A DNA stretch of 16,119 bases from a virus. Taxonomy: Duplodnaviria > Heunggongvirae > Uroviricota > Caudoviricetes. Below, in pieces: positions 4,760 through 5,819 of this stretch; the first letter of the stretch is position 1, and each line of letters opens with the position of its first letter. The translations under genes were made by a program, and so were the position numbers. The DNA lies in the IMG/VR virus record IMGVR_UViG_2526164619_000006, positions 1-16,119 of that record. One strand, given 5' to 3'. The notes beneath the pieces were generated by a model that saw nothing but the letters and a program-made list of their open reading frames with translations, had not been told where the DNA came from and did no database searches.

Positions 4760-5448
4760 CCGCCAGTGTTCTCCTTGTGTGGATGTTCAGCGCCTTCCAT
4801 TTCCTCCGGATCATCTTCCTGAACTTCAACCTGATACTCTTCATCGAATGTTTCCTGGTATGTTGCGTCGCCCATCACCGCGCCACAATCAGGGCAGTTG
4901 CCGCCGCCGGTCTGACCGCAGGCGGTGCAGACTTTTTCCACTTCCTGTTGCGCCACTGGTTCAGGCTGTTTCGTTTCTGGCTCGTTTTGTAACGCATTTG
5001 GGCTGTTTTGTTCTGCTTTTTGGTAGTTCCGTTCCGATTCATGCTGGTTCTGGTTTACAGAATCGCGGGTCTGGATCCCCTTAACCCATTTCGGATCATT
5101 CGGGTCGCTAATCCCTGCAACAAATTCTCCGCGAGAGGCAGCAAGCAACTTATCGGCGTCAGGCTGGCTGATATTGGCTGCCTGCATAATTTTGTTTACT
5201 TCGTCAGCGGTAACTTTTACCGGCTCTGGTTGTGCGGTCGTGTCAGATGCACCAGTATTTTGTTGTGAACCTGAGTACGTGCCGTTTTTACGTGCGAAGT
5301 ATTCCTCTTTTGTGATTTCCGTAGCTCCCAAGGCTAGTGCTTTTTCCAGACCAGAAAGTTTGTTTGCGCGACCGTATTTTTCGCCATCCTTGTCGGTGAA
5401 GAGGAAGTAGAACGGCCCCTCACGCTCTACAGATGGTTCGACTTCCAC
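4760..5448 (-). pseudogene. N-terminal/central region of the exonuclease gene (acidic Q/E/P-rich linker plus CxxC-x8-CxxC zinc ribbon), separated from its catalytic domain by IS911
   Basis: Track ORF 4726..5448; its last ~11 codons are IS-derived. The frame is continuous with 2857..3511 after removing IS911 and one ccg copy (1251 nt, a multiple of 3). Contains [16 protein letters not shown]. Confidence 0.6.
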
Positions 5449-5819
5449 TTTGCATTCGGTTTTTCGTTGTCCGGAATTGCCGTTTCCACTGCATCAGTTT
5501 CTGGTACTGGCGACGAGAGAGTATCAGTTGCGCTCTGATTTCTTCCTTCATCTTCAAACACGCCCTTTGTAGTCAGGTATTCAGTAATGTATTTGTTCAG
5601 TGCCACAGGGTCTTTGTGAATGTCGATCGGACGTTCACGGACAAGGCCAAAAATAGTCTGGCGGTCGTAGCGAAGGGCATCAGGCTGTTTGCGCATTGAT
5701 GCCGAGATACGCTTCCAGTCTTCGCGGTCGTTGTCGATAACTTCATTTTTTGCCCAGCGATGGATGCTGCCGTCAATGTTTCCGGCATCCACATCACCAG
5801 GCCAGAGAGCGTAGGCCAG
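5427..5819 (-). pseudogene. C-terminal part of an early-operon gene (gene A) interrupted by IS600
   Basis: Track ORF 5427..5792; the frame is open upstream to the IS600 junction (..AYALWPGDVDAGNIDG..). In frame with 7084..7806 after removing IS600 and one cag copy. Confidence 0.55.

Follow-up and report, generated by a model that had tools for sequence, protein, structure and literature searches.

The window analysed here, meaning the whole stretch of 16,119 nt, matches the final 16 kb of AKMY01000016.1 in the Shigella flexneri K-315 draft assembly (GCA_000268165.1) at 100% identity, whereas no record among the complete E. coli genomes matched 80% or more of it. This strain originates from Bangladesh (PMC6397287); for its sequencing platform and the identity of run SRR066117, the literature yielded the strain name and origin only. 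The locus is a decayed lambdoid prophage adjoining potC/potD, and six IS copies were found in its 16 kb: IS4, IS911, IS600, two IS1, and an IS629/IS1203-like element. An exonuclease gene, all of whose fragments lie on the minus strand together with their frame junction, is located between DUF1482/dicB and xis/int in the early-left region of the prophage, and the same neighbours were observed in the window and in three compared loci (L001, L002, and L009). As a reference for this gene, we used WP_025404296.1, an intact 823-aa "exonuclease" (2,472 nt) from a prophage of E. coli O145:H28 RM12581. The features of the window are as follows.

1-918: 305-aa ORF, C-terminal fragment of the prophage integrase
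939-2364: IS4, 1,426 bp, in the integrase gene, with a 448-aa transposase (Nterm_IS4 and DDE_Tnp_1) and a 12-bp target duplication, CAGCTTCTGCTG, at 927-938 and 2365-2376
2857-3511, minus strand: exonuclease segment 3, with the C-terminal 3'-5' exonuclease domain (Rv2179c-like, DEDD-type) and the native stop
3512-4759, plus strand: IS911, 1,248 bp, IS3 family, termini TGAAGTGG...CCACTTCA, with an IS3-family transposase (Pfam/NCBIfam)
4760-5459, minus strand: exonuclease segment 2b, native coding sequence in the -1 frame (ORF 4760-5448), with a CxxC...CxxC motif
5427-5429, minus strand: premature TAG, 10 codons past the frameshift
5460-5464, minus strand: A5 run (T5 on the plus strand) where homologues have A6; one base missing, in reference codon 372
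5465-5819, minus strand: exonuclease segment 2a, native coding sequence before the frameshift
5820-7083, plus strand: IS600, 1,264 bp, IS3 family, termini TGAGGT...ACCTCA, with HTH_Tnp_1 and rve (Pfam), 99.4% identical to annotated IS600
7084-7806, minus strand: exonuclease segment 1 (codons 1-241), cut by IS600, with precomputed Pfam matches PF27430/PF27432 (YdfE_N/YdfE_C)
8448-9215: IS1, 768 bp
10948-12253: IS629/IS1203-like element, 1,306 bp, IS3 family, ends TGAACCGCCCCGGG, with an apparent 3-bp duplication
15696-15920: 74-aa fragment of a phage DNA methyltransferase gene
15916-16119: IS1 end, at the edge of both contig and window, truncating the methyltransferase gene

The window aligned to the reference gene in four collinear blocks, all on the minus strand, which together take in reference positions 1-2472 except 39 nt and place the window copy in the 823-aa exonuclease family.

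7806-7460: reference 1-347, 94.8% identity
7459-7084: reference 387-762, 83% identity, preceded by the 39-nt gap
5820-4760: reference 759-1820, 99.5% identity, one gap
3511-2857: reference 1818-2472, 98.9% identity

Compared with two intact homologues, the 39 nt correspond to an in-frame deletion of 13 codons at 7459/7460, between ATGGTTA direct repeats, and this deletion is common to other samples with an identical 241-aa product. The annotated 241-aa product of segment 1 ends at a stop at 7081-7083, inside the end of IS600. Both elements that separate the blocks have the length, the TG...CA inverted repeats, the 3-bp duplication, and the orfA/orfB transposase of the IS3 family. On the minus strand, the target duplication is CTG for IS600 (7084-7086 and 5817-5819) and CGG for IS911 (4760-4762 and 3509-3511), and segment 2a runs on from segment 1 once IS600 is excised.

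When compared to intact IS600, the copy in the window has C4 for C3 at 6361-6364 and C1 for C2 at 6491/6492, a +1/-1 pair that shifts the frame of orfB over about 130 nt and breaks orfB up into three ORFs. None of the complete E. coli genomes contains a version with both homopolymer differences, the best match being 99.2% identical, and these length differences are due either to genuine decay or to homopolymer miscalls in the draft assembly. IS600 has also inserted independently in the same exonuclease gene in E. coli 7_26_9A (NZ_CP074826.1, L002 2788-4052); this is not the insertion of the window, as it lies at about codon 129 and not at codon 254.

Between the two IS elements, the coding sequence is divided over two frames. 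The upstream frame is open from the IS600 boundary at 5819 down to the TAG at 5427-5429 ("cta" on the plus strand), and a mechanical ORF call gives 121 aa from a GTG at 5792. The downstream frame, which is -1 relative to the upstream one, runs from its first possible start, a GTG at 5448-5446, to 4760, the final native base before IS911; read mechanically, it extends to 4726, that is, 34 nt into the IS911 end. On its upstream side, it is closed by an in-frame TGA at 5496-5494, 48 nt from the GTG. The two ORFs thus overlap by 22 nt (5427-5448) in different frames, the upstream stop ending 19 nt inside the downstream ORF. No AGGAG-like or other Shine-Dalgarno motif was found before the GTG. In-frame ATG codons begin at codon 88 (5187-5185), 87 codons past the GTG, and this is where the public gene call SFK315_1189 starts.

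An earlier sequence-only reading of this DNA had described the same arrangement, namely an out-of-frame overlap, a stop 19 nt inside a second ORF starting at 5448 and bounded at 4760, a GTG start lacking a Shine-Dalgarno sequence and any early in-frame ATG, and a closing stop at 5494-5496, and every one of these points was reproduced when the coordinates were read again on the minus strand. It had called the second ORF the N-terminal part of an exonuclease, which is a loose name, as 5448-4760 corresponds to the central region of the protein and not to its N-terminus.

The same reading had proposed that either the two ORFs were overlapping genes or that a single ancestral gene of about 820 codons carried a frameshift between 5430 and 5493, and had suggested aligning the interval to intact homologues. 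This alignment revealed a single 1-nt deletion, which falls inside the predicted interval. The intact reference has GAA AAA ACC (A6) at codons 371-373; its counterpart in the window is GAAAAACC, with an A5 run at 5464-5460 whose zero-frame context is AAC GAA AAA CCG. The missing A is the only indel in the block 5820-4760 relative to the reference, and two more intact copies gave an identical gap. The frame entered after the A5 run encodes a 10-residue tail before the TAG, and among all proteins fetched, this tail was found in the K-315 protein alone.

The effect of each lesion was followed by repairing the gene in silico. Removal of IS600 and IS911, each with one target duplication, and addition of one A opened an ORF of 810 codons down to the native stop, the difference from 823 codons being the 13-codon in-frame deletion. 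When both IS elements were excised but the A was not restored, stops appeared from codon 371 onward. The disabling lesions of the exonuclease gene are therefore exactly three, IS600, the A5 frameshift, and IS911; the window copy lacks an uninterrupted reading frame and is a pseudogene. In the reconstructed protein, PF16473 was matched at residues 629-800 (E = 2.2e-67, 226.6 bits for a cut-off of 27). From N- to C-terminus, the intact protein consists of a YdfE-like part, a RecE-like centre, and an Rv2179c-like DEDD 3'-5' exonuclease, and the frameshift sits in the central region, before the nuclease domain.

The intact state of the site is widespread. More than 3,600 E. coli chromosomal records match 80% or more of the segment between the two IS elements, and they annotate this segment as part of one "exonuclease". 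Of the 5,426 complete E. coli genomes, 1,997 contain a 46-mer with A6, with 3,202 occurrences in total, always under "exonuclease". Among the 120 best-matching cluster representatives at the protein level, 118 read through the site without a break (...NEK(T/N)EC(K/E)VE...). A protein search with the repaired 355-aa segment, aimed at an A6 form of the IS-flanked fragment in sister S. flexneri isolates, returned E. coli-type cluster representatives only, with 96-97% query coverage and without the IS911-junction tail. For the A5 state, we used a 45-mer centred on the run, each 28-nt seed of which spans the run. It gave no match in the 5,426 complete E. coli genomes, nor in the genome_contigs collection, which holds one genome per species; a separate S. 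flexneri genome would not be expected in such a set.

Homologues sharing the two-ORF layout were what the earlier reading had named as the observation that would speak against a frameshift, and the complete E. coli genomes contain none. The layout is not strictly unique to the K-315 genome, as a metagenome scan with an A5 35-mer returned two contigs, both with IS-free copies of the exonuclease gene.

L010 2977-3011 (OJKQ01001740.1): A5 is the sole indel in a gene about 90% identical to the reference
L011 1196-1230 (VOFH01002794.1): A5 is one of three 1-nt indels in 2.2 kb

These copies are 92.7% and 96.6% identical to the window. Since their sequence backgrounds differ from that of the window, they would be independent of it, and they fit independent slippage events or miscalls better than an inherited, designed arrangement.

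Taken together, these results indicate with high confidence that the overlap at 5427-5496 reflects a one-base homopolymer deletion in a single lambdoid prophage exonuclease gene of about 820 residues, as judged from its alignment to intact homologues. The 823-aa homologue is collinear with both pieces and the repaired frame is open over 810 codons, in line with the single-gene option of the earlier reading. Neither ORF is a gene in its own right. On sequence comparison, the two-frame pattern is not due to chance, since the two frames follow each other along a gene that thousands of homologues carry without interruption. With A5 in place of A6, translation would meet the TAG at 5427-5429 after 10 codons in the shifted frame, and the remaining coding sequence would lie in the -1 frame, with the GTG at 5446-5448 as its first start by happenstance. 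No functional product of the gene is possible, because it is also cut by IS600 upstream and by IS911 downstream.

The other option put forward at the outset, two genuine and translationally coupled genes with the stop at 5427-5429 in the GTG start region of the next one, has a negligible probability. Short out-of-frame overlaps are frequent in phage operons, and SFK315_1190 and SFK315_1189 are listed as separate proteins in the public annotation, but the GTG is not preceded by a ribosome-binding site and the annotated start is an ATG 87 codons further in. Moreover, both pieces match one continuous homologous protein end to end, and this collinearity, together with the counts of A6 and A5 in complete E. 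coli genomes, refutes coupled genes in practice. A programmed recoding event, in which a -1 ribosomal frameshift or transcriptional slippage on the A-run joins the frames into a full-length protein, is very improbable as well. The downstream frame does lie in -1, a one-base backward slip of a Lys-tRNA on A_AAA would give ...E K T E C K..., and the A5 state was found again in the two metagenome contigs. However, no slippery heptamer of the form X XXY YYZ is present in the zero frame, where the run reads C GAA AAA C, so that only single-tRNA A_AAA slippage is conceivable, and no Shine-Dalgarno-like stimulator was observed upstream of the A-run. Five A's are too few for efficient slippage of RNA polymerase. 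The two-frame layout is not conserved either, the A5 and A6 states being found 0 and 3,202 times, respectively, in complete E. coli genomes, with 118 of 120 homologues in a single frame and A5 in two metagenome contigs, and recoding could not rescue a gene that two IS elements also cut. Comparably small chances are given to a related scenario, in which the A6 at codon 372 is a recurrently contracting tract acting as a stochastic switch from full-length exonuclease to a nuclease-less fragment of about 380 residues, perhaps restored by low-level -1 slippage. A5 was indeed seen in three sequence backgrounds, K-315 and the two IS-free metagenome copies, but the gene has five 6-nt runs and the search for contractions covered this one only, which introduces an ascertainment bias; for this reason, no claim is made that the A-run is a hot spot.

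A possibility to be taken more seriously, although still an unlikely one, is that the draft assembly misstates the length of the homopolymer, in which case K-315 itself would carry A6 and only the two IS elements would interrupt its gene. A contraction from 6 to 5 is a typical class of error, and the source of the sequence is a draft. The frameshifted 121-aa product is recorded for the K-315 assembly and SRR066117 only, and is not seen in other samples with an identical IS600 junction. In addition, the two private homopolymer-length differences of the IS600 copy lie only 900 nt away and were found in no complete E. coli genome, and one of the metagenome A5 contigs, with its three 1-nt indels, looks error-prone. 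On the other side, the Logan re-assembly of SRR066117, the only second source, gives an identical sequence of 1,077 nt, A5 included, although its reads may be those of the same strain, and consensus errors at normal coverage are less expected in a run as short as 5-6 nt. The other phage genes of the window show no coding indels relative to close relatives, and a 4-nt deletion outside any homopolymer in another IS copy points to real decay in the region. Whether the base was lost by mutation or by miscall, the main conclusion is unchanged and the gene is dead either way.

The annotation of related samples gives some indication of the order of events. The fragments of the gene are annotated in K-315 as EIQ24487.1 (241 aa), SFK315_1190 (121 aa), SFK315_1189 (153 aa), and SFK315_1186 (180 aa). 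The IS600-truncated 241-aa product, with an identical junction, is also present in GCA_049894805.1, ERR5961276, and the Logan assembly of SRR066117. As the truncated product occurs in several samples and the 121-aa product is recorded for K-315 and SRR066117 only, this distribution suggests an older, shared IS600 insertion and a private A5 state. The deletion would most likely have arisen by slippage during replication of the A6 run, and may have come later than the IS600 insertion. The private A5 would then be either a miscalled base in the K-315 data or a late, neutral hit to a gene that had already been inactivated.

Decay is not restricted to this gene. The IS1 copy at 8448-9215 replaces about 4.9 kb of a close E. 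coli relative (L009 4614-9518), a region that includes a racR-like repressor, a cro-like HTH protein, ydaT, a replication HTH protein, an ATP-binding protein, and the start of DUF1627; from this comparison, the immunity and replication genes appear to have been lost in a deletion associated with IS1. In the IS629/IS1203-like copy, ACGC (4 nt) is deleted at 11673/11674 relative to intact copies of 1,310 bp, and its orfB is split. Downstream of the Q antiterminator gene, at 15197-15217, an A-run and a T-run surround a GC-rich stem, with A6 instead of A8 and T8 instead of T9 when compared to L009; these differences are intergenic homopolymer variation.

The locus can be regarded as a worked example of layered decay in a Shigella prophage, in which three IS elements interrupt two genes and an apparent deletion associated with IS1 is accompanied by small indels. 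In practical terms, the four K-315 entries described as "hypothetical protein" or "exonuclease" are fragments of one pseudogene, and not separate genes or an overlapping pair. Frame geometry, read without tools, had placed the frameshift to within 60 nt. Beyond annotation, the significance of the lesion is small.

The closest known counterparts of the gene are the 823-aa exonucleases of E. coli lambdoid prophages (WP_025404296.1 and WP_000048527.1), with which the window copy is collinear over its full length at 83-99.5% nucleotide identity and shares domain order and prophage position, but from which it differs by IS600, the 1-nt deletion, IS911, and the 13-codon in-frame deletion. RecE (exodeoxyribonuclease VIII) of the Rac prophage is another counterpart. 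Like the 823-aa exonuclease, it is encoded in the early-left operon of a lambdoid prophage, and residues 242-625 of the intact homologue, a region that contains the frameshift site, match positions 267-602 of the RecE model NF007259 (E = 3e-84). The C-terminal region of RecE (model 603-877) is unmatched, and at 283.6 bits the score falls far short of the 1269-bit cut-off of the model; the family of the window gene ends in a DEDD-type 3'-5' exonuclease (PF16473). By these matches, the central region is one that resembles the non-catalytic middle of RecE/ExoVIII, and the protein is not a RecE equivalog.

With the A AAA AAG sites of dnaX and of the IS3-family orfA/orfB junction, the window site has in common an A-run at the junction and a downstream frame in -1; unlike them, it has neither a heptamer nor stimulatory elements, and its shifted layout is not conserved. 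The lesion of the exonuclease gene is instead ordinary gene decay in a Shigella prophage remnant, a feature of a known kind. The same IS load and the same small indels in non-essential prophage genes characterise IS- and slippage-driven pseudogenisation in Shigella, of which the window locus is a typical case with nothing distinctive.
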